Part shown: positions 16,473-41,635 of the stretch, piece after piece
Layout of the letters: each line of letters begins with the position of its first letter
How positions within the stretch are numbered: the stretch's first letter is position 1
Source of the DNA: a virus
Lineage: Duplodnaviria > Heunggongvirae > Uroviricota > Caudoviricetes
Direction: 5' to 3' (one strand)
DNA length: 64,000 nucleotides
IMG/VR virus record: IMGVR_UViG_3300006151_000006
Coordinates: 1-64,000 of that record
Notes under the pieces: generated by a model
The model's input: only the letters and a program-made list of their open reading frames with translations
Database searches by the model: none
What the model was told of the DNA's origin: nothing
Translations under genes and position numbers: made by a program

Positions 16473-16487
16473 GCTGTTTATAATTTG

Positions 16488-16561
16488 TCGTCCTGTCCAG
16501 ACTCGAACTGGAACCTTCAGAGCCAAAATCTGACGTGCTGACCAATTGACACCACAGGACA
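16488..16561 (-). tRNA. tRNA-Gln(UUG)
   Basis: U1-G72 acceptor pair, anticodon loop TTTTGGC, T-loop TTCGAGT. Confidence 0.7.
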
Positions 16562-16565
16562 AGAT

Positions 16566-16772
16566 TTATCGGTTAAAGACTTTAACAAACCCTCCGATTA
16601 TGACACAAATGAATAGGACTGCCAATACGATGGCGAAAGGCCCCCAAAGTGGAGCAAGCACCCACCACCACGACCAAGTAATGATATTACACAGTTTCAG
16701 TGTAATGAAAATCAATCCAAGGATCGCTAAAAATGGGAAACTGGTTGAAGTGGTTTTCTGAATATTTGCCAT
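16566..16772 (-). CDS. small membrane protein (2 TM helices)
   Basis: MANIQKT... is very hydrophobic. The longer listed ORF overlaps tRNAs and is rejected. Confidence 0.4.
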   Translation of the reverse strand: MANIQKTTSTSFPFLAILGLIFITLKLCNIITWSWWWVLAPLWGPFAIVLAVLFICVIIGGFVKVFNR

Positions 16773-16794
16773 AGTTTTTATATTAATGGTTTTG

Positions 16795-16881
16795 CGGAAG
16801 CGATGAGACTCGAACTCATAAGCCGGTTTCCCGACAGGCACGTTAGCAGTGTGCTGGTTTGACCAATTCACCCACACTTCC
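16795..16881 (-). tRNA. tRNA-Ser(GCU)
   Basis: Type II with a long variable arm, 3 bp D stem, anticodon loop CTGCTAA, discriminator G. Confidence 0.75.
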
Positions 16882-16887
16882 AATTTG

Positions 16888-16961
16888 CAGCGCATACCGG
16901 ACTCGAACCGGCGATCTCCTCCGTGACAGGGAGGCGTCCACTCCAACTGAACTGATGCGCT
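16888..16961 (-). tRNA. tRNA-Asp(GUC)
   Basis: Anticodon loop CTGTCAC, stem CCTCC/GGAGG. Confidence 0.8.
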
Positions 16962-16969
16962 ATATATTG

Positions 16970-17042
16970 TATGGGTGACAGGGCTCGAACCTGCGACATC
17001 TACATCCCAAATGTAGCACTCTACCAACTGAGCTACACCCAT
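16970..17042 (-). tRNA. tRNA-Pro(UGG)
   Basis: Anticodon loop TTTGGGA. Confidence 0.75.
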
Positions 17043-17048
17043 ATATTG

Positions 17049-17122
17049 CAAGTCGTGAAGGATTTGAACCTCCGAAATTTGGTTTTGGAGACCAACGCAA
17101 TAGACCACTCTGCCAACGACTT
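17049..17122 (-). tRNA. tRNA-Trp(CCA)
   Basis: Anticodon loop CTCCAAA. Confidence 0.75.
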
Positions 17123-17129
17123 GTGTTAG

Positions 17130-17201
17130 AGGGCATGGTGGGGGTCGAACCCACGACCTGACGGTTAACAGCCGCCTGCTCTACCACTGAGCTACAAACC
17201 C
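17130..17201 (-). tRNA. tRNA-Asn(GUU)
   Basis: Anticodon loop CTGTTAA; one U-U mismatch in the acceptor stem. Confidence 0.7.
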
Positions 17202-17207
17202 ATTATA

Positions 17208-17280
17208 GACACTCTTGTCAGAATCGAACTGACGTGTACGGTTTTGCAGACCGCCGCCTCGCCACTCGGCCAAAGAGTGT
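17208..17280 (-). tRNA. tRNA-Cys(GCA)
   Basis: Anticodon loop CTGCAAA. Confidence 0.7.
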
Positions 17281-17282
17281 TG

Positions 17283-17356
17283 TGGACCCGACAAGAATCG
17301 AACTTGTGCCCTTCGACTTATGAGGTCGCTGCTCTAACCAACTGAGCTACAGATCC
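17283..17356 (-). tRNA. tRNA-Met(CAU) (elongator or Ile2-type)
   Basis: Anticodon loop CTCATAA; lacks the initiator features. Confidence 0.7.
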
Positions 17357-17361
17357 ATTTG

Positions 17362-17436
17362 GGTGATAGATGGAAGTTGAACCCATGACCTCCTGATTCA
17401 CAGACAGGTGCTCTAACCACCTAAGCTACTAACACC
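17362..17436 (-). tRNA. tRNA-His(GUG)
   Basis: Anticodon loop CTGTGAA; the extra 5' G(-1) pairs with C73. Confidence 0.8.
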
Positions 17437-17437
17437 G

Positions 17438-17509
17438 TGGATTGAGATGGATTTGAACCACCGACGCTTGGCTCTTCAGGCCAACGCTCTACCACTGAGC
17501 TATCAATCC
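17438..17509 (-). tRNA. tRNA-Phe(GAA)
   Basis: Anticodon loop CTGAAGA. Confidence 0.8.
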
Positions 17510-17515
17510 TTAATG

Positions 17516-17587
17516 TACCCCCACCGGGAATCGAACCCGGATTTCAAGAATGAAAATCTTGCGTCCTAACCTTTAGACGACAGGGAC
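17516..17587 (-). tRNA. tRNA-Glu(UUC)
   Basis: Anticodon loop TTTTCAT; the acceptor stem carries four G-U pairs. Confidence 0.6.
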
Positions 17588-17589
17588 AT

Positions 17590-17674
17590 TGGTGGAAGCA
17601 GAAGGACTCGAACCTACGAACTCCGAAGAGGGCAGTTTTACAGACTGCTGCCGTTGCCGCTTGGCTATACTTCC
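17590..17674 (-). tRNA. tRNA-Tyr(GUA)
   Basis: Type II, anticodon loop CTGTAAA, CCA encoded. Confidence 0.75.
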
Positions 17675-17679
17675 ATTTG

Positions 17680-17753
17680 TCGGAAAAGATGGACTCGAAC
17701 CAACGACCTTCTGCGTATCAGGCAGATGCTCTAACCAACTGAGCTATTTTCCG
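17680..17753 (-). tRNA. tRNA-Ile(GAU)
   Basis: Anticodon loop CTGATAC. Confidence 0.8.
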
Positions 17754-17814
17754 ATAAACTCAGCGATTCTCACGAACCACTGAGAAAGATTGAATTATGT
17801 GCAATTTAAACCAT

Positions 17815-17890
17815 GTCAGACAATCGGGACTCGAACCCGAAACCGTTCCACCTTTTCGGTAGCTGCTCTGTCCAATTGAGCTATTGTCTG
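17815..17890 (-). tRNA. tRNA-like element with non-canonical anticodon arm (pseudo-tRNA?)
   Basis: Acceptor, D and T arms are perfect, but the anticodon region CTACCGAAAAGGTGG gives only a 5 nt loop, or a loop lacking U33. Confidence 0.4.
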
Positions 17891-17998
17891 TGCGCCCGCT
17901 ACGCAACTGAAGCGTTTCCCAACGACTCAGTACCTCCGACGCGTCTAAAACAATCTTTTCAACCTTAAAACAAAACCACAATAAACTAAAACCCTAAG

Positions 17999-18071
17999 AG
18001 CCACTTGCAAGACTCGAACTTGCGACCCCGATATTACAAGTATCGTGCTCTACCAACTGAGCTAAAGAGGC
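17999..18071 (-). tRNA. tRNA-Thr(UGU)
   Basis: Anticodon loop CTTGTAA. Confidence 0.75.
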
Positions 18072-18275
18072 ATACGGAATAAGTTGTTTACGCTTACCCC
18101 CAACTCCGATGACGGCCTTGCTCGGAGAAACACCGCCAGCTAACGTTCTGGCTCCGCGACTTACCAACCTCACCAGTTGTCTCTGGTATTGAGGTGCCGG
18201 AGGCTTTTCGATCCCTCGATCATTTCAGCAGTTAGAACTCGTCAAGTTGCTGAAAGGTGCGCACAAAGGCTGCGG

Positions 18276-18355
18276 TGGTTCGGGTAGGACTTGAACCTAC
18301 GTCATTCCGGTAGTTAACCGGTTGCTCTTACATGTACCTACTGAGCTACCAAACC
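18276..18355 (-). tRNA. tRNA-like element with a 15 nt D loop and a palindromic anticodon arm
   Basis: Acceptor and T arm are canonical. D region is GCTC-15nt-GAGC. Anticodon arm is CCGG TTAACTA CCGG with T at position 37. Confidence 0.4.
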
Positions 18356-18361
18356 TTGTAG

Positions 18362-18435
18362 TGGAGCCATCGGGAGTCGAACCCGAAACCTTCTGAATGC
18401 AAATCAGACGCTCTACCAATTAGAGCTATGACCCC
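18362..18435 (-). tRNA. tRNA-Ala(UGC)
   Basis: Anticodon loop TTTGCAT, G3-U70 identity pair, discriminator A. Confidence 0.8.
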
Positions 18436-18478
18436 AAATCCGCAAAGACACAAAGGGGATTGCGCCTTTGCGGTGTGT

Positions 18479-18805
18479 TTACATTTTCCACATACCGAAA
18501 TGTTCTCTCCAGTCAAGATAGTTGTTTGCACTTTCATAGAAGTACGCTTCTTTCTCAAAAGAGATATTTCGGTAAGCATTGCCGGGAAGAAAGAGTCTGG
18601 CAAGCCATTCCAACACATAAATAATGTAGAAGAAAATGTAGCCAAGTTCTTTCATCTGAGCAGTGTGGATCTTTTCGTGATTCCATAACCGTTCAGAGAT
18701 TTTGACATCATTGCGTACAAATAAAACTCCGAAGAGATTGATAGCAGCAAATCCGGGGAACGGTATGAATGAATTGCGGATTATTTTCATCGTCTGACAT
18801 TCCAC
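18479..18805 (-). CDS. HExxH-motif putative metallohydrolase/peptidase (membrane-associated)
   Basis: Hydrophobic N-terminus followed by RLWNHEKIHTAQMKELGY. Confidence 0.5.
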   Translation of the reverse strand: MECQTMKIIRNSFIPFPGFAAINLFGVLFVRNDVKISERLWNHEKIHTAQMKELGYIFFYIIYVLEWLARLFLPGNAYRNISFEKEAYFYESANNYLDWREHFGMWKM

Positions 18806-19611
18806 ATAGTGCTGGATGTGCCGCCATCAAAAAGTACGTCAATATTTGCACCCTGTTTGGCCGCAATCACATCCCATGCTTTCAGGCTGATAAACTGTTC
18901 CGCAGTAAGACCCATTTCTCGCTGGTATGCCTTGTCAGACACAGCACGTTGTCGTTCAGCCTGCTCTCGTGCAACCTCAGTTTCGTAACGCCGCTCCTGA
19001 GTCTGTTTGGCCTGAATCTGTGCCGCAGTGTTATTCATTTCCTTTAGCTGTGCGTCATTAGGGATTGCGCGTCCTGTAATGACATTTTCAACAACGACAG
19101 GAAACTCCTTCTGGGTGGACAACCGGGCAATATGTCGAATCATATCGGCTTTAACACATGAGTCGATGTGTGCGACAACCTCTCGGTTGCTGGTAAGGTC
19201 AAACGGGGAATACTGAGAAACATAGTGTCGAGTGAGGTTGTTGTAAACTTCCTTGATATTGTTCTCATACCAGTTGACACCATAATTCTTCAGAAGAACG
19301 GGACTCTTGCCTTTCTCGATTCGGAGAATAATCTGAGTCTTGAAATCCAGAGGGGGGTTTTCATTAGAAATGATGTCATCCAGCGTTTCCTCGTAACGGA
19401 CAGGAGTTACTTTGAAGGTTTCGCTTGAAGTGCTCCAGAAGCACCAAGTAAGACCGGTCTCAGCGGGTTCCATGTCCACGCCACCATGTCCGAAAAACCA
19501 CGGCTTAGTGATCAACACTGCTTCTTCATCAGCGTCAGGGCACACGCCGTGACAGCTGGAAACGGCAACGCACATAATTAGTGCGAGAAATAGTTTAATG
19601 AAATGTTTCAT
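18787..19611 (-). CDS. SPFH/band-7 family lipoprotein
   Basis: Lipobox AVSSC, a PHB-like core, and a coiled-coil C-terminus (EAERQRAV...). Confidence 0.55.
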   Translation of the reverse strand: MKHFIKLFLALIMCVAVSSCHGVCPDADEEAVLITKPWFFGHGGVDMEPAETGLTWCFWSTSSETFKVTPVRYEETLDDIISNENPPLDFKTQIILRIEKGKSPVLLKNYGVNWYENNIKEVYNNLTRHYVSQYSPFDLTSNREVVAHIDSCVKADMIRHIARLSTQKEFPVVVENVITGRAIPNDAQLKEMNNTAAQIQAKQTQERRYETEVAREQAERQRAVSDKAYQREMGLTAEQFISLKAWDVIAAKQGANIDVLFDGGTSSTMWNVRR

Positions 19612-19647
19612 AATTGTTTGGTTTGTTAAAATGTCAATGTTCTCTTT

Positions 19648-19728
19648 TGTGGGCTAACCGAGACTCGAACTCGGACACCGATGGTACAGCATTTTGAGTG
19701 CTGCGTGTCTACCAATTCCACCATTAGC
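19648..19728 (-). tRNA. tRNA-Leu(CAA)
   Basis: Type II, anticodon loop CTCAAAA, discriminator A. Confidence 0.75.
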
Positions 19729-19733
19729 CCTTA

Positions 19734-19817
19734 TGTGCTCCGACTGGGAGTCGAACCCAGACGGTCACTATGACCAAGGGATTTTAAGTCCCTCGCGTCT
19801 ACCATTCCGCCACCGGA
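19734..19817 (-). tRNA. tRNA-Leu(UAA)
   Basis: Type II, anticodon loop CTTAAAA. Confidence 0.75.
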
Positions 19818-19827
19818 GCTTAGAAGT

Positions 19828-20040
19828 TTATTTAAGCCACCGAATTAACATGGACAGCAGCCAACCGTGACGTACTTTAGTCTGTTTCAACTCCTTCTTT
19901 TGGAGCTTTAGCATCGCTATCTCAGCCTTATGTGCAGCAATTTTGTTGTCAATATCGGCATTAAGCAATGCGATTTCAGATTGATTGTCTTGCAGTGATC
20001 TAATCACTGAATCACGACGGTTGTTGAATACTGTGTCCAT
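19828..20040 (-). CDS. small coiled-coil protein
   Basis: Internal start MDTVF; the longer ORF overlaps tRNAs. Confidence 0.35.
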   Translation of the reverse strand: MDTVFNNRRDSVIRSLQDNQSEIALLNADIDNKIAAHKAEIAMLKLQKKELKQTKVRHGWLLSMLIRWLK

Positions 20041-20056
20041 ATCTTTTAGAATTTGT

Positions 20057-20140
20057 TGGTGGGCCACGCAGGACTCGAACCTGCACACCTTTCGATACTG
20101 GTTCCTAAGACCAGCGCGTCTACCATTTCGCCAGTAGCCC
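20057..20140 (-). tRNA. tRNA-Leu(UAG)
   Basis: Type II, anticodon loop CTTAGGA, CCA encoded. Confidence 0.75.
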
Positions 20141-20198
20141 GATTTTGCTGAGAGTGGTGAACCTCTCAGCTGGCTCCCTATATTGGTGAGTGCCTTTG

Positions 20199-20270
20199 TA
20201 GCGGGAGTAGGACTCGAACCTACGACCTCTGGGTAATGAGCCCAGCAAGCTACCACTGCTCTATCCCGCA
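20199..20270 (-). tRNA. initiator tRNA-fMet(CAU)
   Basis: Unpaired 1:72, A11:U24, and three G-C pairs at the base of the anticodon stem. Confidence 0.7.
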
Positions 20271-27440: not shown

Positions 27441-27493
27441 AAGTCTTGACTACTTCATTTCATACGCGATTATTGGTTTATTGTGTTAGTGAA

Positions 27494-30309: not shown

Positions 30310-30339
30310 ATAGTTGTTAAAAATGAAATGCTCAAAGTC

Positions 30340-31600
30340 TTGACGTATTTCTGTATTTCTATGATGTCATCGAGGGAAGCGAAGGCCTCCTCAAGCGAAA
30401 GCAGGACCTCGGAGGATTCCTCCGAATGGTCCTGCGGGCTTGGGAGGGTGCCCGGCCCCGATGAATGAAACAGAACCTCTTGCATTTCGATGTTACGTTA
30501 CATTTTATGATAATCTCATCAGCATGGCGCATTTCTTTAACTCTTTCAATGTGCGGGCTGATACTGAAGGATCAGCTCCAGTTGATTCGACTGGAGAAGA
30601 TCCTTGCGTGTGGCAGCCCACAATGAATCTTACTGTCTTGATCATCATATTTGCGCTATCTATATTGTTCTCAATTACTTTGCACATCGCTATATCTGAT
30701 TGATGTGAACTGTTTATTACGCGGCGGGCCTGCCGGTAAGATGTCACGGTAGGGCCAGATAACCGGCAGGCCCGCCGCGATATGTAACAGTTCGACTGAA
30801 AGTGTAATCATTGAACAATAATCTGCTGTGCTTCAGTGCCACACTCAATGATGGTTGTATGTTTCTTTATAAAGTTGATATGAGAAGCTACCGACTATTC
30901 GTCGTCATATCCGTTAGGAGATGACGACGAATGATGGAGGAGCTATCACATTAAATCTTCATCATATTATGTGGTTGATCGCATACTCGACGATGTGATT
31001 GTGTTTCCGATTATGTGTAACTATATGTTTTTGATATGACTACGAGTGAGATCCTGTACCGGGACGCTGATACATCAGAATCCTTCTGAAGTAGAAGTCG
31101 TCCCGGTACAGGAGATATACTCGTGCTCATTAAATACCGGGATTTCCAATCACGCGCTGCACATCCAGCTTATAGTTGTCATGCCGATTGTATGTTTCTG
31201 TATTCTATTCGATGTACTCCTGAATACAGTTGTCGAGAGAAAGCTGGAGGCTCTCCAGCTGACCTCTCGAAAATAAGGATTCAGGATGACTGAATTTCTC
31301 GGCCATTCAACTATCATCTGCATACTCAGATTTGAGAATAGTTAGAAGCATAGTGTAGTTCTATATATTGTTGATATGTATCTGTCTAACCAGAAGACGG
31401 CTGAGAGGAGTCGGCACGACTCCTCGATGACGTCTTCTGGTTAGAGACAGATAATTGAAGGTGGCTTCTTTCCATCCTCTCCGTACACTCGGTTATTGAC
31501 GATAGTCAGACTTGTAGTGCGTTGCTTTATTTGTTGATATTATCCCGCCATTGTTCGTTCACGGGATTATTAAATACTTGTCATTCTACCGTCACTGCGC
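30340..31600. repeat. tandem array of about 8 units (period roughly 150-180 bp): a conserved leader of about 25 nt, then a unique 40-90 nt near-perfect palindrome, then a short trailer
   Basis: Leader variants tGTATGTTTCT..TATAAAGTTGATATGA occur near 30349, 30530, 30690, 30852, 31009, 31190, 31355 and 31520. Palindromes include cgcggcgggcctgccggt/accggcaggcccgccgcg, attcgtcgtcat/atgacgacgaat, tcctgtaccgggacg/cgtcccggtacagga and tctgtctaaccagaagacg/cgtcttctggttagagacaga. Trailer reads CATTAAAT. Confidence 0.7.
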
Positions 31601-31613
31601 ACTCAGATAATTA

Positions 31614-32870
31614 TTATAAAGTAGCAACCAACGTTTTGTACGCTTCACGACTGGCAACCATTGCGTTTTGCATACAATTGATGGTTAAATACCCATCAAT
31701 TGTTACAATCTTAGAGCGATTTGCTTTAACGTTGCGTCCTATACCTCGTGAAATACATCCTTCTGATTGAGTGGCGACATAACCGAGACCACCAACTTTC
31801 TTCTTTCCTGTAGCAACCGCTTTCAGACAATCCATCACAAATTTGTTAAGTTCCTGAATGTCTTTCTTAACGTTGCATACCGGCAGAATTTGAGTGGCCC
31901 AGCTATATTCTCCATTTCCTTTATAAAGAAAGCGATTGACAGCGTTGATGGCTTTCTTCAGTGTTGCACCTTTTGCTTTGATGGTGCGAGCCTCGATTTC
32001 TTTCTGGAATTTCTTAATTCTGGTCCCGCTTAATGAAATGTCAGAACCTTTGATGGAATATCCGAGAAACTTAAACCATCGGGTATGAGTAAGGTATTCG
32101 ACTTTCTTGGGGTTGAGCGTCATTTCTTTCTCAGCCAGTTTATCTTTCAACACATTCATTGCAACCTCGTAATCGGTTCCGATGAACAAAATGTCATCTG
32201 AATATCTGACATCGTAGCCATCAAGTTTAGCTAATTCTTCATCAATGTCATAAAGAATGACATCAGCAAGCCACGAGGCGACTGAACAGCCCTGTTTAAG
32301 TGATTGATATGCGCTTTTAAGTTGCCCATCAGTGTCGAAGTATAAATCAGAATGATAGTATTTCCTAAGCACATCAATCAATGAAGAATGACCATACTTT
32401 GCTTCTACTGAATCAAAAGCCGCATCAATGAAACGAAGGGGAACGCTGTCAAAATATTTACTTAAATCAGCTTTCCAGCCAATCACATCGCCTTGGGTTT
32501 CACATATTTTGCGTGACGCTTCCTGAACAATTTTCCCACAGCCAATACCTTTCTGATATGATTGGCAATGTGGGTGTATCATCTCAGGCATCAGTTCAAA
32601 CAACAAGTCATTTGTGATACTGAGAAGTATGCGATCTGCCGGTTCATTGATATACACGGTTCGATATTCTCCATTGTCCTTAGGAATTTGTGCTGTATGC
32701 GGTGGGGCTATTTCGTAGCGGCCATCACGGATTGCTTCATACATCTGAACTCGTGTTTCCGGCTTTGTCAACTGATAAAGCTCGCTCTTAGCGATGCTCT
32801 TGCCGACACCTTTCTCGATAGCATATATCCATCGTTCAGGTTCAAAGAATTTTTCTAAGATGTAATCCAT
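31614..32870 (-). CDS. reverse transcriptase (group-II-intron/retron-like RT domain plus thumb-like C-terminus)
   Basis: RT1 IPKDNGEYRTVYI, RT2 SYQKGIG, motif A DLSKYFDSV, B' QGCSVASWLADVIL, C RYSDDILFIG, plus HTRWFKFLGYSI; 418 aa. Confidence 0.85.
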   Translation of the reverse strand: MDYILEKFFEPERWIYAIEKGVGKSIAKSELYQLTKPETRVQMYEAIRDGRYEIAPPHTAQIPKDNGEYRTVYINEPADRILLSITNDLLFELMPEMIHPHCQSYQKGIGCGKIVQEASRKICETQGDVIGWKADLSKYFDSVPLRFIDAAFDSVEAKYGHSSLIDVLRKYYHSDLYFDTDGQLKSAYQSLKQGCSVASWLADVILYDIDEELAKLDGYDVRYSDDILFIGTDYEVAMNVLKDKLAEKEMTLNPKKVEYLTHTRWFKFLGYSIKGSDISLSGTRIKKFQKEIEARTIKAKGATLKKAINAVNRFLYKGNGEYSWATQILPVCNVKKDIQELNKFVMDCLKAVATGKKKVGGLGYVATQSEGCISRGIGRNVKANRSKIVTIDGYLTINCMQNAMVASREAYKTLVATL

Positions 32871-32886: not shown

Positions 32887-33135
32887 TTAAAACCATCTGA
32901 GAAGCCTTGCGGTTTCCCAGTAGAAATTATATTGTGGGTAGAGTTCTTTTAAAATGCTTATAAGCTTACCTCTAATTGGATGTTTGTAGATAAATAACTG
33001 ATAATCGGCTATTTTAAAGTCTCTATTTTTTCTTAGCCCACTCAATGTTAGGAGAGAAGATATAAAGTCCTCAATCTTTATCTCTGCGGGATTTTCGAGG
33101 ATAGGCTTTCGGACTCGTTTTCTTTTTCGGGGCAT
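32887..33135 (-). CDS. hypothetical basic protein
   Basis: 82 aa; overlaps the next ORF, so the two may be one frameshifted gene. Confidence 0.3.
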   Translation of the reverse strand: MPRKRKRVRKPILENPAEIKIEDFISSLLTLSGLRKNRDFKIADYQLFIYKHPIRGKLISILKELYPQYNFYWETARLLRWF

Positions 33136-33415: not shown

Positions 33416-33487
33416 TGTTGCTGATGTTTGTGAAGAATAGTTGGTGTTGGTGTCCTACGTTGTCCATAAACTCGACTTTAACATTCG

Positions 33488-33853
33488 TTATTTAACAAAT
33501 CCGCCAAAGTTGATTGGAATAGATACATCGCTTACTGCCACAGTTTCCGGGATGCGACCGGTGATATAGCTTAGGTGGCCCGGTTCTGCATAGATGATTT
33601 CAGTATCAAAACCATACTCGTTCTCTACGCCAAATACCGTAAGCCAGTCGTGACCATCTACACGCTCTACCGTAACTTTCTCTACTTTGTAGTCTGATGC
33701 ACACTCTGCGTGTTTGGTCGATGCCAATATCACAGGAGCATCCTCAGAGCTGAATCCTATTTCACCGCCATGAGCAATTACGGCAGCGATAAGTTCATTT
33801 TCCTCGTGCTTTTTAATTGCCTCAAGGAGATGATAGAAGTCTGTATGCTTCAT
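33488..33853 (-). CDS. hypothetical protein
   Basis: 121 aa ORF. Confidence 0.45.
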   Translation of the reverse strand: MKHTDFYHLLEAIKKHEENELIAAVIAHGGEIGFSSEDAPVILASTKHAECASDYKVEKVTVERVDGHDWLTVFGVENEYGFDTEIIYAEPGHLSYITGRIPETVAVSDVSIPINFGGFVK

Positions 33854-35437: not shown

Positions 35438-35716
35438 TTATTCATCTTCGTAGTATGGAATTTTGAAATAATTGCAGAAGTATTCAAGATTTCGCCACCA
35501 GCATTCATTATGTTTGTCATCTTCAAAGTTGATTCTTTCATCTTTTGAAAGTCTAAGATCATGACGAGTAGATTCTTCGGTACAGTCAATGATTTTCTGC
35601 ATAGTTATATCATTGGTACTAATGGTGTTGAATGGACATGGAAGACTTTCAAGTTCACCACGGGTTATACTTGATTGTCCGCATACGAATTCTTGGTTGT
35701 AAAATTCTTCTATCAT
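35438..35716 (-). CDS. hypothetical Cys-rich protein
   Basis: 92 aa ORF. Confidence 0.4.
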   Translation of the reverse strand: MIEEFYNQEFVCGQSSITRGELESLPCPFNTISTNDITMQKIIDCTEESTRHDLRLSKDERINFEDDKHNECWWRNLEYFCNYFKIPYYEDE

Positions 35717-35733
35717 ATCTATTGGTTATTATA

Positions 35734-35757
35734 GCCCGGCTCTGGAAGGAGCCGGGC
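35734..35757 (-). other. GC-rich 9 bp stem-loop 10 nt downstream of the DUF1566 gene stop (DGR-style cruciform or terminator)
   Basis: gcccggctc-tggaag-gagccgggc, with no U tract following on the coding strand. Confidence 0.45.
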
Positions 35758-35766
35758 GTACCGATT

Positions 35767-36450
35767 TCAAAATGCGACAACTCCACGAACCCGGTACCTG
35801 TTGTACTTGACGTTGATGTACGTGCTGCCATCCGAGAAGTTGACGTTCCATGCGCCGTTGCGACTGCCCTCAGATATTGTCCAATACCACGCATCACTCT
35901 CAAGAGGCTCTCCACCGGCAGCACGAAGTGCTTTCTGAAGGACGGTCTTAAATATTCCCATTACATCGAACTGGCGGACAAGCGGCATGTATTCACCATC
36001 TGCCAAGGGAATGTCGGTACCGATACGTTTCAGCCGATCAGTGGCAGCGATGAAGTCATATTCTTCATGGCAACTTTTACCATTTTGATCGGTGTAATAG
36101 TCTGCGGAGCTCGGACATCTTTCATAGTCGCGATACAACTTGAAACGGCCCTTATCACGAAGTGTAACTCCGAACTTGATGTGTCCAAGAACAAGTCCAA
36201 TGTGCGCCACATTGTCCATTGTTTCCTGACCGTCATACTTGACTGCTGTGCCATCATTCAGACAAAAGTACACGCCATCTTCAGCGTTGTCAGGCAACAC
36301 TGTGATAGTATCCTTAGTTTTGAAAGAGGCAAACGCCCCTTTCTTGTTAGCAACGAAGTCCATAGCATCCTGTGCCTTGTCTCCGAATTCACGGAAAAAC
36401 ATCAGTCGGATGCGCTCTGATGTTGAGAGAAGATTATTTAATTTGTCCAT
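35767..36450 (-). CDS. DUF1566/C-type-lectin-fold protein, candidate DGR target
   Basis: C-terminus AWYWTISEGSRNGAWNVNFSDGSTYINVKYNRYRVRGVVAF matches the CLec tail pattern (aW.vnF..G......K....yVRcV). It is rich in NNC codons of the kind produced by AAC diversification. Confidence 0.55.
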   Translation of the reverse strand: MDKLNNLLSTSERIRLMFFREFGDKAQDAMDFVANKKGAFASFKTKDTITVLPDNAEDGVYFCLNDGTAVKYDGQETMDNVAHIGLVLGHIKFGVTLRDKGRFKLYRDYERCPSSADYYTDQNGKSCHEEYDFIAATDRLKRIGTDIPLADGEYMPLVRQFDVMGIFKTVLQKALRAAGGEPLESDAWYWTISEGSRNGAWNVNFSDGSTYINVKYNRYRVRGVVAF

Positions 36451-37519
36451 TGTTCTTTGTGGTTTGAATTGAGTGTGATGAAAGTTGATTATTCCAATCA
36501 TAGCCGTCGTCATACAGCGACTCGTCTTGGAGTTCAGCTATGATGTCTTCAATGTCTTCTACACGAAGTAGATTCAGCGTTTGGCCGTATGAAGTAATGA
36601 ATTCTTGGGCTGAAAGATTCGGATTCTGATCTATCTCAAAAGAGAGATAGTCGCGAGCTGTTGCATACTGTTCATAGAATTCTTCCAGTTTAGCCTCTTC
36701 GAGCTCTTCGCCGTTTTTTTTTCGCCATTTACCACGACCATAGTACGAGTAGTAATCTGCGTAACGGTCGTATTGTGAGAATTCGTGAGGATAAACATCC
36801 ACACACTTCTCAATGATGTGGTTGACGAAATTGAGTGCGTTTATCATATCTTGCTTCACTACATACTCACGCTCAGTATGAGGCTCGTAGTAGCCACAGC
36901 TGAGATTGATACAAGACACTCCGAGCCCATTTTCTTTCAGGGCTTCCACGTCTGTCATCATTCCAGTTTCTTCTTTATATCCGAAGAGTTCTGCCTCAGT
37001 TGCGATAACGAAATCTTCAGAGCAAATGTCACAGAAACCTATGTCTGTAATGAGGTCATGTGCACCACGACGGTCGGCCTGCACCACGAAGCGAACATCT
37101 GAGAAGAATTCCATATTTGCTTGAGATGAGCCTTTGCAGCCCACTTCTTCCGCAATGAAAAATGCGACTTTGAGAATTTCATGCTGCTTCAACATTTTAA
37201 GAGCAATCCAGATACCGCACTTGTCATCAGCACCCAAACCGCATTGCTTACGCTGTGATGGAGAATAACCGAACACGATGTCGGCAGTTTCCACCACCTT
37301 GTAATCTTTCGGATAAGGCTGTTGAACCTGATCCATGTGAGCTGCGAGGCAAGGGTAAGTTTCAGCCTGACCTTTCGTGAGATACAGATTGCCTACTGCA
37401 TCTTCCTCGATTGTCACATTAGGGACACTACTGCGAACCCAACGTTTGATATATTGACGCATTGGCTCTTCCGCATGTGAGCCGGAATATACCGCTGCAA
37501 GTTTCTTAAACAGTTTCAT
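36434..37519 (-). CDS. M42/M20-like metallopeptidase (aminopeptidase family)
   Basis: Metal-ligand-like AAHMDQV, GLGADDKCG and EEVGCKGS. Confidence 0.45.
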   Translation of the reverse strand: MKLFKKLAAVYSGSHAEEPMRQYIKRWVRSSVPNVTIEEDAVGNLYLTKGQAETYPCLAAHMDQVQQPYPKDYKVVETADIVFGYSPSQRKQCGLGADDKCGIWIALKMLKQHEILKVAFFIAEEVGCKGSSQANMEFFSDVRFVVQADRRGAHDLITDIGFCDICSEDFVIATEAELFGYKEETGMMTDVEALKENGLGVSCINLSCGYYEPHTEREYVVKQDMINALNFVNHIIEKCVDVYPHEFSQYDRYADYYSYYGRGKWRKKNGEELEEAKLEEFYEQYATARDYLSFEIDQNPNLSAQEFITSYGQTLNLLRVEDIEDIIAELQDESLYDDGYDWNNQLSSHSIQTTKNNGQIK

Positions 37520-39164
37520 TTTGAGGTGCATTTGTTGCAAGGAATGAGTATTTCTCGGCAGCTTCCATACAATCCTTGCAAGTGTATGAACCGTCGATGT
37601 TCTGAATCATGTCTTCGATTTCTTCTACATCGTCACATTCAGAACAGATGGCATAACCACAATCGGGGTTATTTTTGATGTAGTTGCGTTCTGCTGCTTC
37701 TCGGCAGTCGTCATCGCAGTAGTATTCTTCGGTGATGTCTGAATAGCAAACACAGTAATCGTTTGCTCTACGCATTTCGCCGCAGTGAGCACAGAAGATG
37801 ACTTCATCACGAGGGACTGCTGCGCTTTCAAACCAGACATACTCGTCAGGATTTTCTTCGCAGTATTCACGTTCCGCTCTTTCACGACAACTTTCGCAGC
37901 AGTAATCGCCATCAGTGATTTCAGAATAGTAGTTCTTGTTTTCAGCGATGTATGCTTCTTCGCATTCGTCGCAATAACTTACCATTTCTTCGTGATAGTA
38001 GCGATCATCTATGCAGATGAAGTCATCAAGGTCATCTTCATCACATGACATCCATCGCCCATCATAGCAGACTTCAACAGTGTCATTGCGAGTATAACGG
38101 TCGTGGTATTCATCGTAGTTCCGGTCTCCATCGAGAGTATCTTCCGTCGAGTCAAGTCTATAATCATAGCCAGTCTCATAGTTGTATGCACGATTCTCAT
38201 CCATATTGTACCACTTGAAGCTGTCTTGATAACTCAGTGTGTCGTCGTAATCAAGATTACACTCGATAGAGAAGCAGCACTCGCTGAGGTCATTGCCGTT
38301 GTTGTCAACGAATCCACGGGAATTATGACAGTCTGCACCGACACGTTTGTAGCCGTCGATATAACCACCTTCGATGAGTTTGTTGACGAGTATCTGTTTC
38401 AGCATGTCATCACACTCGCTGGAGTATTGACGCTCACAAAGGCGGAATGTATCGCCAGTGTCGTCATCAGTGACCTCCGTAAAGACGATTGCACGAGCCA
38501 CGATATAATCGTCAGGGTCTGTTAGATATGCTGCCTTACATGTCACGCTTTCTGCGTAAAACGGCCAATGACCTTTGTTTGACATGCAACTTCCGAAATC
38601 ACCTTTCTGACGGCTGCGGTCATATATTGTCTTGAAGTCATCATCTACATGCAGTGTATATTCAGAAGTTGTGTTGTAGCCACTCCATTCCAGCGACAAT
38701 TCTTCACATAACCACGTTACCACCTGAATGGGGAGCATCTGCCCGAACTCAGTTTCAAGGATGAGCTGACGATACATCTTGCCAGCCTTCATCTTATATA
38801 CCTTGCCAGAGTCAAGGTGGACATAGCGAATTGATTTCACATCTCCGTCTTCAGTTTTGCCGTTCATACAATCCGTCTTGTAGAGATGACTTCTCCAGTG
38901 GCGGTCTTTTAAGCGAAGAATACCACCATCTGGATTGAAACGATAGCTGGTTAAACGATTGAGGCAAACAGTTTTCAACTGTGCCATTGTTTTGATTTGA
39001 GCGAGTTCGGGGTCGTTGTGCTCACGGACCCATTTCAGGAGCTTGGGAGATTTGTAGTAAGCCAGAAGAATTTGGTTTCTTCTTGACTTAACACCATTGC
39101 CATGTTCCCGAAGTTCAAAGATTTCCTTGAAACCTTCGTAACCTTCAAAGGGATAAAATAACAT
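37506..39164 (-). CDS. large protein with at least five tandem Cys-pair modules (zinc-ribbon-like repeats)
   Basis: Repeated Y..CDECEEAY, CCESCRERAEREY, CAHCGEM, CDDDCREAAERNY, CSECDD and CKDCMEAAEKY. Confidence 0.55.
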   Translation of the reverse strand: MLFYPFEGYEGFKEIFELREHGNGVKSRRNQILLAYYKSPKLLKWVREHNDPELAQIKTMAQLKTVCLNRLTSYRFNPDGGILRLKDRHWRSHLYKTDCMNGKTEDGDVKSIRYVHLDSGKVYKMKAGKMYRQLILETEFGQMLPIQVVTWLCEELSLEWSGYNTTSEYTLHVDDDFKTIYDRSRQKGDFGSCMSNKGHWPFYAESVTCKAAYLTDPDDYIVARAIVFTEVTDDDTGDTFRLCERQYSSECDDMLKQILVNKLIEGGYIDGYKRVGADCHNSRGFVDNNGNDLSECCFSIECNLDYDDTLSYQDSFKWYNMDENRAYNYETGYDYRLDSTEDTLDGDRNYDEYHDRYTRNDTVEVCYDGRWMSCDEDDLDDFICIDDRYYHEEMVSYCDECEEAYIAENKNYYSEITDGDYCCESCRERAEREYCEENPDEYVWFESAAVPRDEVIFCAHCGEMRRANDYCVCYSDITEEYYCDDDCREAAERNYIKNNPDCGYAICSECDDVEEIEDMIQNIDGSYTCKDCMEAAEKYSFLATNAPQNETV

Positions 39165-39485: not shown

Positions 39486-39995
39486 TAGCGGTTTTGTTGG
39501 TTGGTTTACGGCTAAGAATAGAGAAGCGCGGGTGTCCTAAGTTGGCCACCCGCGCTTCTTTAACTATCCTTAATATCGCTTTTAACTTTTCTTTCTAATC
39601 GAAGTATATTTCATCAGCGTTAAACATTGCAGTTGCTCCGCCAAAGAATTTAACAACGAAGAAGTTGCCTGACTTACCTATAATTATACCTTCATGATAG
39701 CCACACCACGGCCTATATCCACGGTGATGATAGCCACGCCACGGTTTGACAAGTTTGCATTGCCATCCACATTCTTTGAAATGAGTATCGTAATCCATAT
39801 CAGGCTTTTCTTGTGATTTCTACATTTTTGAGAAATGGACGTTCTCGCATCTTCTTCACATATTCCTCTGTAGCGAGGAACCGTACTGTCAGATGTCTGT
39901 CCGGCCCTTCCTTGTGAGTATAAAACTCGCGGCCACCAAATCGTAAGTATTCAACCACTTCAGCGGTGGCCGGAGCGCAGTAGTAATGTATCATA

Positions 39996-41391: not shown

Positions 41392-41635
41392 GTTTTATGT
41401 CCTATGTTGTCCGCTTGTTGTACTTTAACCTATGTTAATATGCGCTGGCGATATTCGTTCCGTGTTCAATATCCAGCATTATTTGAAGTCGTTTGGCACG
41501 TTTTCTATGCCATGCGAGATACACTGCGTTCTCAATGCCTAAGCGGCGTTTCAGTATTTCAACTGAGAATATGAAGTACAAATCCTCTGCTAATCTCACG
41601 ATATTTTTGATTGTCTTTTTCATTTTTGGGCACAA

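Follow-up and report, generated by a model that had tools for sequence, protein, structure and literature searches.

A 64,000-nucleotide stretch of DNA from a tailed phage of the Caudoviricetes (positions 1 to 64,000 of the IMG/VR record IMGVR_UViG_3300006151_000006; hereafter the window) codes on its minus strand for a 227-residue protein with a predicted DUF1566/C-type lectin-like fold. Based on the distribution of variable positions in this protein and the match of its gene to a template repeat (TR) from the same phage lineage, we propose that the small lectin gene very probably carries a genuine remote variable repeat (VR) of a diversity-generating retroelement (DGR). The VR/TR mismatches fall specifically at adenines of the TR, the hypervariability is confined to particular codons across near-identical phages, the VR forms the end of a lectin fold, and a conserved hairpin lies just beyond it; moreover, the contig that bears the orthologous gene in the closest relative also bears the DGR cassette. 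A preliminary description of the window, drawn from its sequence without database searches, had suggested that the C-terminus of this protein hosts a DGR VR on a C-type lectin fold, and both the TR match and the codon-specific hypervariability support that view. The coordinates of the features discussed are collected in Table 1.

The variable repeat and its template

The gene lies within a longest open reading frame (ORF) of 35767..36513 on the minus strand, at the end of which we find both the C-terminus previously given for the protein (...AWNVNFSDGSTYINVKYNRYRVRGVVAF) and the predominance of NNC codons that had been noted in its tail. Protein searches recovered 19 homologues of ~227 residues, and we place the start of the protein at the internal methionine of 'MDKLNNLL' (36450) rather than at 36513 because all of them (19/19) begin there. 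They share a conserved body, followed by the last ~35 residues, in which variable positions are set in a fixed scaffold (SExSRxxAWxVxFSDGxTxxxxKxxSxRVRAVVAF). In an alignment of 15 proteins that are 91-100% identical to that of the window (alignment A3), residues 1-194 are invariant bar a few haplotype positions, and ~14 positions in the segment 195-219 (195, 198-199, 202, 204, 209, 211-214, 216-217 and 219) differ in nearly every sequence. The hypervariable positions coincide with the AAC/TAC codons of the TR, namely 13 AAC codons and one TAC codon, and the pattern of variability in the remoter homologues matches that of the 15 near-identical proteins. Similarly, at the nucleotide level the VR of the window and that of its orthologue in the closest relative (locus L001) differ almost only at the first and second positions of NNC codons, with VR flanks that are 94-96% identical and a stop codon, spacer and hairpin that are identical. 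Hypervariability among near-identical proteins is thus limited to the VR, and on the strength of these sequence patterns the small-lectin protein family is NEVERTHELESS DGR-diversified.

An AlphaFold model built on a further alignment (A1) has a mean predicted local distance difference test score (pLDDT) of 86.7. Foldseek searches with this model against the PDB recovered BACOVA_04982 (4eps; E 4e-5) as the best match, with the C-terminal domain of Legionella Lcl and then many C-type lectin-like proteins below it; those against viral models recovered a 228-residue DUF1566 protein of a crAss-like phage along with tail-fibre tips. The match to the Pfam Lcl_C/DUF1566 family is weak (E 8e-4, below the curated cut-off), and it is the predicted structure that bears out the fold assigned in the preliminary description, with the VR at the C-terminus of the modelled lectin fold. 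A direct reading of the protein sequence revealed no N-terminal signal-like segment.

No TR was recovered from the 64-kb window by blastn (word size 7), by a repeat finder or by an ungapped adenine-tolerant scan, in which mismatches were allowed wherever the candidate template has an A and for which C-, G- and T-tolerant scans served as controls. The best adenine-tolerant matches within the window were A-rich tracts, which were no better than those of the T-tolerant control. The core pattern of the TR was absent from the window at up to three mismatches, and tblastn searches of the window with the RT (reverse transcriptase), Avd and fibre of the cassette described below matched only the VR itself, with neither a DGR RT nor an Avd being detected. 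The preliminary description, which had proposed such an adenine-tolerant alignment, had seen no template because there is none in the window.

A search pattern consisting of the scaffold as DNA with AAY at the variable codons, scanned over public collections, matched four viral contigs and exactly one record in the genome collection, LUJS01000050.1; the scan of the metagenome collection provided one extra TR (ODUU01000506.1), from which nothing further was learned. LUJS01000050.1, a contig of 202,416 bp with the title 'MAG: Bacteroidales bacterium M8', carries a syntenic, 91%-identical orthologue of the small gene (L001), with its VR at ~153.02-153.12 kb on the plus strand. The TR lies at ~104.70-104.81 kb on the minus strand, i.e. 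48 kb from this VR and in the opposite orientation. Upstream of the TR are an ORF for a 131-residue Avd-like protein and a gene for a 2022-residue tail-fibre-like protein, the C-terminus of which is the primary VR, and downstream of it is an RT with the motif AIGNILSQL. The remote VR of L001 differs from this TR on its own contig (L007) at 14 adenine sites and one other site over 104 nt (p 9e-7), the primary VR differs from the TR at 16 adenine sites and no others, and three further VR/TR pairs display 11-13 adenine-site mismatches and none elsewhere.

In L003, L007 and L103-L108 the TR either directly precedes an RT gene or runs into its beginning, and the RT has the motifs AIGNILSQL and FVDD. 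Hence, outside the window, both in the relatives and in the window's own lineage, the TR adjoins an RT of the DGR clade, with GxxxSQ and not QGxxxSP. In a comparison with its DGR counterpart from Bacteroides phage Bacuni_F1, the cassette RT shows 34% identity (E 6e-62), and its best sequence match in the PDB is a 328-residue RT (8ub7), which we take to be the bRT of the Bordetella phage. Every cassette further contains an ORF of 114-131 residues between the target gene and the TR, a putative Avd.

The exact protein of the window (P0034) is found on 16 contigs of the Joint Genome Institute (JGI) from at least eight samples of one study. The longest of these, Ga0080706_1000039 (112,178 bp), is 99.75% identical to the window over 20.7 kb and has the small gene at 81,037-81,720. 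An Avd search combined with a cluster look-up led to the cassette Avd P0075, which is likewise listed for a contig of exactly 112,178 bp, probably the same one. The loci coding for P0075 (L103-L108) show in succession a 2007-residue fibre with the primary VR, Avd, the TR, a 488-residue RT and then baseplate genes. One of them comes from sample 3300006098, of the JGI series that holds the exact protein of the window, and a second sample, 3300006140, has yielded both L097, in which the gene is identical to that of the window, and L005, a viral contig that bears the TR with the best match. Compared with the TR of the lineage (L104, identical to L005), the window VR has 10 adenine-site and two other mismatches in 104 nt (Fisher p 2.7e-4), indicating that here too the mismatches fall at adenines of a TR that is situated outside the window. 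Synteny with LUJS01000050.1 puts the predicted site of the cassette at around 84 kb in window coordinates, past the head genes and some 20 kb outside the right-hand edge of the window.

At one further locus (L006, on IMGVR_UViG_3300008268_000014), the Avd-TR-RT unit immediately follows the 227-residue gene. We excluded this adjacency as evidence and consider it a likely assembly chimera, because the join falls within a stretch of at least 60 nt that is common to the ends of the remote and primary VRs (directly shown for L007 and L010), and because the head and baseplate modules would then be divergent, unlike in LUJS01000050.1 and L103-L108. As a separate observation, the contigs of L008 and L097 end at the VR or the hairpin, one of them with a poly-C artefact inside the stem.

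Target-site elements and alternative explanations

At the 3' end of the homology the VR (GCATTTTGA...) and the TR (GCATTAGATG...) diverge in a region that resembles an initiation of mutagenic homing (IMH) junction. It is followed by a GC-rich inverted repeat with stems at 35734-35742 and 35749-35757, which reads on the coding strand as GCCCGGCTC (35749-35757), the loop and GAGCCGGGC. The 9-bp GC stem that had been placed ten nucleotides past the stop is indeed present, beginning at the 10th nucleotide after the TGA (35767-35769). We observed a GC-rich hairpin at a similar distance after every VR examined (10 VRs), albeit with differing stem sequences: GCCCGGCTC in the window, L001 and L003; GCTCGGCTCG, with a compensatory C-G to T-A change, at the primary VR of L007 and the remote VR of L010; CCCTCGCTC in L002; and GCCCGGC and GGTACGGC at the two VRs of the Bacuni phages. 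The proposed resemblance of the hairpin to a DGR retrohoming cruciform gains support from this conserved placement with covarying stems. Furthermore, the primary VR of L103-L108 is followed, through the hairpin, by the same sequence as the remote VR of the window (GCATTTTGAAATCGGTACGCCCGGCTCCTTCCAGAGCCGGGCTATAA), the 47-nt 3' flank being identical; the remote and primary target sites thus carry the same cis elements. In the Bordetella phage BPP-1, a hairpin/cruciform just 3' of the VR is needed for efficient retrohoming; the structure of its stem matters and the stem sequence does not, and this element together with the IMH suffices to retarget the DGR (PMC3240598). The hairpin of the window is such a conserved element beyond DGR target sites and, by analogy, would function in retrohoming.

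Taken together, we envisage a cassette with its core outside the window, comprising an Avd-like gene, a TR of 104-112 nt and a DGR-clade RT with the motif IGNxxSQ, which would lie directly downstream of a ~2000-residue tail-fibre gene with the primary VR, on the other strand from the small gene and ~48 kb away. If the system operates like that of BPP-1, the TR RNA would be reverse-transcribed with random misincorporation opposite adenines, and the resulting cDNA would replace any VR with a matching junction at its 3' end and a GC hairpin beyond it. As the remote and primary VRs share this junction and hairpin exactly, one cassette could serve both. In the small protein, the residues rewritten would be those of the 13 AAC codons and the single TAC codon, which are predicted to map to the binding surface of the lectin fold. 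The RT encoded near the small gene, a member of the UG27 group, takes no part in the process.

Several observations weigh against this proposal. The window itself contains no TR, DGR RT or Avd, and the presence of the cassette in this exact genome is deduced from the 99.75%-identical contig and from synteny. The ORF of 114-131 residues is assigned as Avd by its position and size; it resembles the annotated Avd of Bacuni marginally (E 0.012) and has no sequence match in Pfam or the PDB. The two non-adenine differences between the window VR and the TR are an interior AGT>AGG and a GCA>GGA situated 13-14 nt from the end of the homology. Finally, the VR allele is identical on all 16 contigs from the one study.

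The last two of these points bear on the alternative that survives best, though we regard it as improbable, namely that the VR is a fossil: once diversified, the remote copy in this lineage would no longer be rewritten and would now constitute a fixed lectin allele, possibly frozen by the C>G change near its 3' junction. The interior non-adenine change is flanked on both sides by adenine-derived changes and must either post-date the last homing event or represent an RT error at a non-adenine, as is occasionally made by DGR RTs. Likewise, the single shared allele fits one without recent rewriting, and primary VRs do differ between the samples of another study (L105, L106 and L107). Against such freezing, the reading frame is intact, as are the hairpin and the 47-nt 3' flank, neither of which differs from its counterpart at the primary VR; the lineage has the cassette; and relatives with near-identical backbones carry many different alleles, with primary VRs varying from sample to sample. 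The samples with the shared allele, moreover, all belong to one study and maybe to one population, and assemblies give only a consensus; the identity of the allele on the 16 contigs argues neither way decisively on ongoing diversification. That the remote VR is still being rewritten is something that we infer, as is the identity of the ligand of the protein.

Less probable still is the possibility that the hairpin is merely a transcription terminator without a role in retrohoming. It does lie just after the stop codon, and GC-rich stems are typical of terminators, but there is no T-tract after it on either strand, on account of which it does not have the look of an intrinsic terminator, and a terminator scan makes no call. 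Its folding energy as DNA is -11.8 kcal/mol (z = -2.5; 5/200 shuffles as good), a modest value when taken alone, and it is the conservation with compensatory changes at other VRs that lends it significance. Within the fibre-Avd-TR-RT unit, the primary VR also has this structure after it, as do both Bacuni VRs; its stems covary at a constant placement, and hairpins of this kind are needed for efficient retrohoming in BPP-1. The null offered in the preliminary description, a static DUF1566 adhesin without retroelement involvement, accords with the lack of a TR in the 64-kb window but is very unlikely: a matching TR occurs both on the very contig of the relative and among samples of the same series, the lineage TR matches the window VR, and codon-specific variability at TR-adenine codons in otherwise invariant proteins already refutes this explanation for the family.

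The neighboring UG27 retroelement and other genes of the window

The RT 2.9 kb downstream of the small gene on the same strand was correctly reported in the preliminary description, but the link between it and the VR that was implied there does not hold, and we see next to no chance that this enzyme drives the diversification as an unconventional DGR, given that it is a full-length match to the RT_UG27 profile of PADLOC (residues 1-418; E 1.4e-224), has QG...YSDD (RYSDD), typical of non-DGR RTs, in place of GxxxSQ, shows no significant similarity to the cassette DGR RT, and is not the RT that the TR adjoins. Downstream of its gene is an ORF-free stretch of 1.3 kb with ~7 long near-perfect hairpins spaced by ~150-200 nt, most of them followed by an ATATCAA-like motif. 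Adenine-tolerant scans detected no TR-like sequence in this non-coding region. A search of the 28-37 kb region against Rfam returned nothing real, there being no Rfam family for the UG27 hairpin array. UG27 RTs are a phage-borne group of the class 2 UG/Abi RTs with an associated non-coding RNA (PMC9226505), and they are reported to copy the central hairpins of the RNA array into cDNAs of 50-100 nt (bioRxiv 10.64898/2026.09.22.753630, 2026 preprint). The neighboring RT resembles these systems in its full-length profile match, the YSDD motif, the adjoining long non-coding hairpin array and its location in a phage; based on the profile match and the hairpin array we consider it a separate retroelement, which is unrelated to the window VR.

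An 82-residue ORF is found just upstream of the UG27 RT. The order 82-residue ORF, RT, gap, 149-residue ORF and ~353-residue ORF is kept in L001, L010 and L095 and is rearranged in L009; profile searches (PHROG) identified neither of the two UG27 accessory proteins. Judging from its sequence organization, the segment 30310-33135 on the minus strand would constitute a complete-looking UG27 retroelement.

The small lectin gene belongs to a long minus-strand block that includes a DNA ligase, a replication-initiator-like gene and 20 tRNA genes, and its 5' end overlaps the stop codon of a gene for an M42-like peptidase. The head module (portal, protease and structural protein) is encoded on the plus strand from 56.5 kb onwards and continues past the right end of the window. 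A megablast search of the 30-40 kb region against GenBank phages yielded no match. In the relatives, the pair formed by the peptidase gene and the DGR target is always immediately preceded by a gene for a 552-residue protein, the C-terminal half of which is acidic and Cys-rich with many CxxC pairs and which has no Pfam or PHROG match. A variant of the small lectin at L014 (protein P0001; JGI 3300006138) has the VR allele of the window, an internal deletion of 11 residues (216 residues in all) and changes near 'IGTYIPFA'; it reflects either a genuine deletion or a misassembly.

Elsewhere in the window, the tRNA genes comprise two for tRNA-Met, three for tRNA-Leu and one for a tRNA-Phe with the unusual anticodon AAA, among others, with no suppressor tRNA being called among the 20. 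A 381-residue transposase/integrase-like ORF has a near-identical copy at L095 with precomputed Pfam matches to HTH_28 and rve. Both the window and the 112-kb JGI contig have this ORF; a Form_Nir_trans-like gene takes its place in L001, and the alignment of the window with the LUJS01000050.1 relative ends at window position 27457, just short of this ORF; it is probably an insertion sequence or part of a swapped segment. Lastly, three copies of a 42-nt motif (GGTGTCCTAnGTTGnCC...CTTTAAC...TTA on the plus strand; 67-71% identity) each occupy a short gap directly upstream of the start of a minus-strand gene (33415, 39485 and 41391), and this motif may be a phage promoter or operator.

Table 1. 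Positions in the window of the small lectin gene, its target-site elements and other features mentioned in the text
Feature	Position	Strand	Description or basis
Target gene	35767..36450	-	N-terminal helix and predicted DUF1566/C-type-lectin-fold body; probable secondary ('remote') DGR variable protein
Variable repeat (VR), 104 nt	35771..35874	-	Encodes last ~35 residues; TR match and hypervariability
End of TR homology, last codon, stop, 9-nt spacer	35758..35770	-	IMH-like junction; VR/TR alignments
GC-rich inverted repeat, 9-bp stem, 6-nt loop	35734..35757	.	Putative hairpin/cruciform for retrohoming; fold and conservation
UG27 RT gene	31614..32870	-	RT_UG27 profile match
Non-coding hairpin array	30310-31613	-	ORF-free, downstream of UG27 RT
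82-residue ORF	32887-33135	-	Just upstream of UG27 RT
M42-like peptidase gene	36434..37540		Stop overlaps 5' end of target gene
552-residue protein gene	37506-39164	-	Cys-rich C-terminal half
20 tRNA genes	16487-20270	-	
Transposase/integrase-like ORF, 381 residues	26241-27386	-	
42-nt motif, three copies	33449-33490, 39531-39572, 41396-41437	+	

Known systems and biological implications

The closest parallel comes from the Bacuni phages of Bacteroides uniformis. A tblastn search against GenBank phages recovered a full-length homologue of the small lectin with 30% identity in Bacuni_F1/F2/F4. In Bacuni_F1 the homologue is Bacuni_F1_00026, which has DNA polymerase A and a methyltransferase as its neighbors in the replication block; the cassette (RT, TR, Avd and proximal target) occupies 34.0-36.6 kb, at a distance of 12 kb. 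Bacuni_F1 has been described as having two DGR targets, one distant and one adjacent, in each of which the VR corresponds to the last 35 residues (PMC8143477). The distant target (VR1) and the window protein are homologous over their full length (224 versus 227 residues) and have in common the DUF1566/lectin fold, a VR in the last ~35 codons, a location in an early/replication block away from the cassette, a cassette that adjoins a second, proximal target, and a downstream GC hairpin. They differ in that the distance to the cassette is 12 kb on the same strand in Bacuni, as against ~48 kb on the opposite strand in the closest relative of the window, and in that the primary target is a 253-residue protein in the former and a ~2000-residue fibre in the latter. 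The Bacuni phages are also only 40 kb in size, whereas the phage considered here is much larger (contigs of 112-202 kb, 20 tRNAs).

With the Mtd/TR/bAvd/bRT system of BPP-1 the proposed DGR shares the adenine-specific transfer from TR to VR in a C-terminal lectin fold and the hairpin/cruciform just downstream of the VR, of which the stem structure is conserved and not the sequence. However, BPP-1 has a single adjacent target, in contrast to the two targets seen here, one of them remote. Its IMH consists of 14 bp of G/C only and its hairpin has a 4-nt loop, unlike the junction and the 6-nt loop in the window, for which the evidence comes from sequence. BACOVA_04982, the best match of our model among solved structures, is a cellular 497-residue DUF1566 protein of the fimbrial tip of Bacteroides ovatus and corresponds to the small lectin only in the lectin-fold part; it is reportedly a DGR target in gut metagenomes. 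Large gut phages with tentaclins likewise combine tRNA arrays with a DGR that has more than one VR and acts on a tail fibre tipped by a lectin. We rejected membership of the small protein in the tentaclins on grounds of topology, as in these an N-terminal lectin domain precedes the Ig-like domains, whereas here the lectin fold with the VR is C-terminal and the model contains no Ig domain.

DGRs with multiple VRs in large gut phages and DGRs with two targets have already been published, and the largest survey acknowledges remote targets without capturing them; what is particular to the present case is the 48-kb separation, the opposite orientation, the far larger phage and the coexistence with a UG27 system. 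Metagenome-scale DGR surveys that demand a VR beside the RT systematically miss remote targets (PMC8144416), for which reason each documented remote target helps gauge how much diversification has been overlooked. What had looked like a possible DGR lacking a template can now be understood as the second, remote target of a DGR that acts on a tail fibre in a large Bacteroidales phage of the gut. This case also illustrates that a nearby RT is no proof of a DGR, as the phage carries two unrelated retroelements, a DGR and a UG27 system.

With respect to function, we tentatively raise the somewhat doubtful possibility that the small lectin is an early-expressed non-structural binder, for instance of a variable host or defense component, and not a receptor-binding protein of the virion. 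This is suggested by its location in the early/replication block on the strand opposite to the head and tail genes, by its translational coupling to the peptidase gene, and by the same placement of its homologue in the Bacuni phages, which are unrelated and 40 kb in size. In that case a single DGR would diversify in parallel a tail fibre and an intracellular or accessory factor. That a free-standing lectin of ~225 residues recurs as the secondary target among the early genes of two Bacteroides phage types that differ greatly makes the nature of its ligand a testable question.

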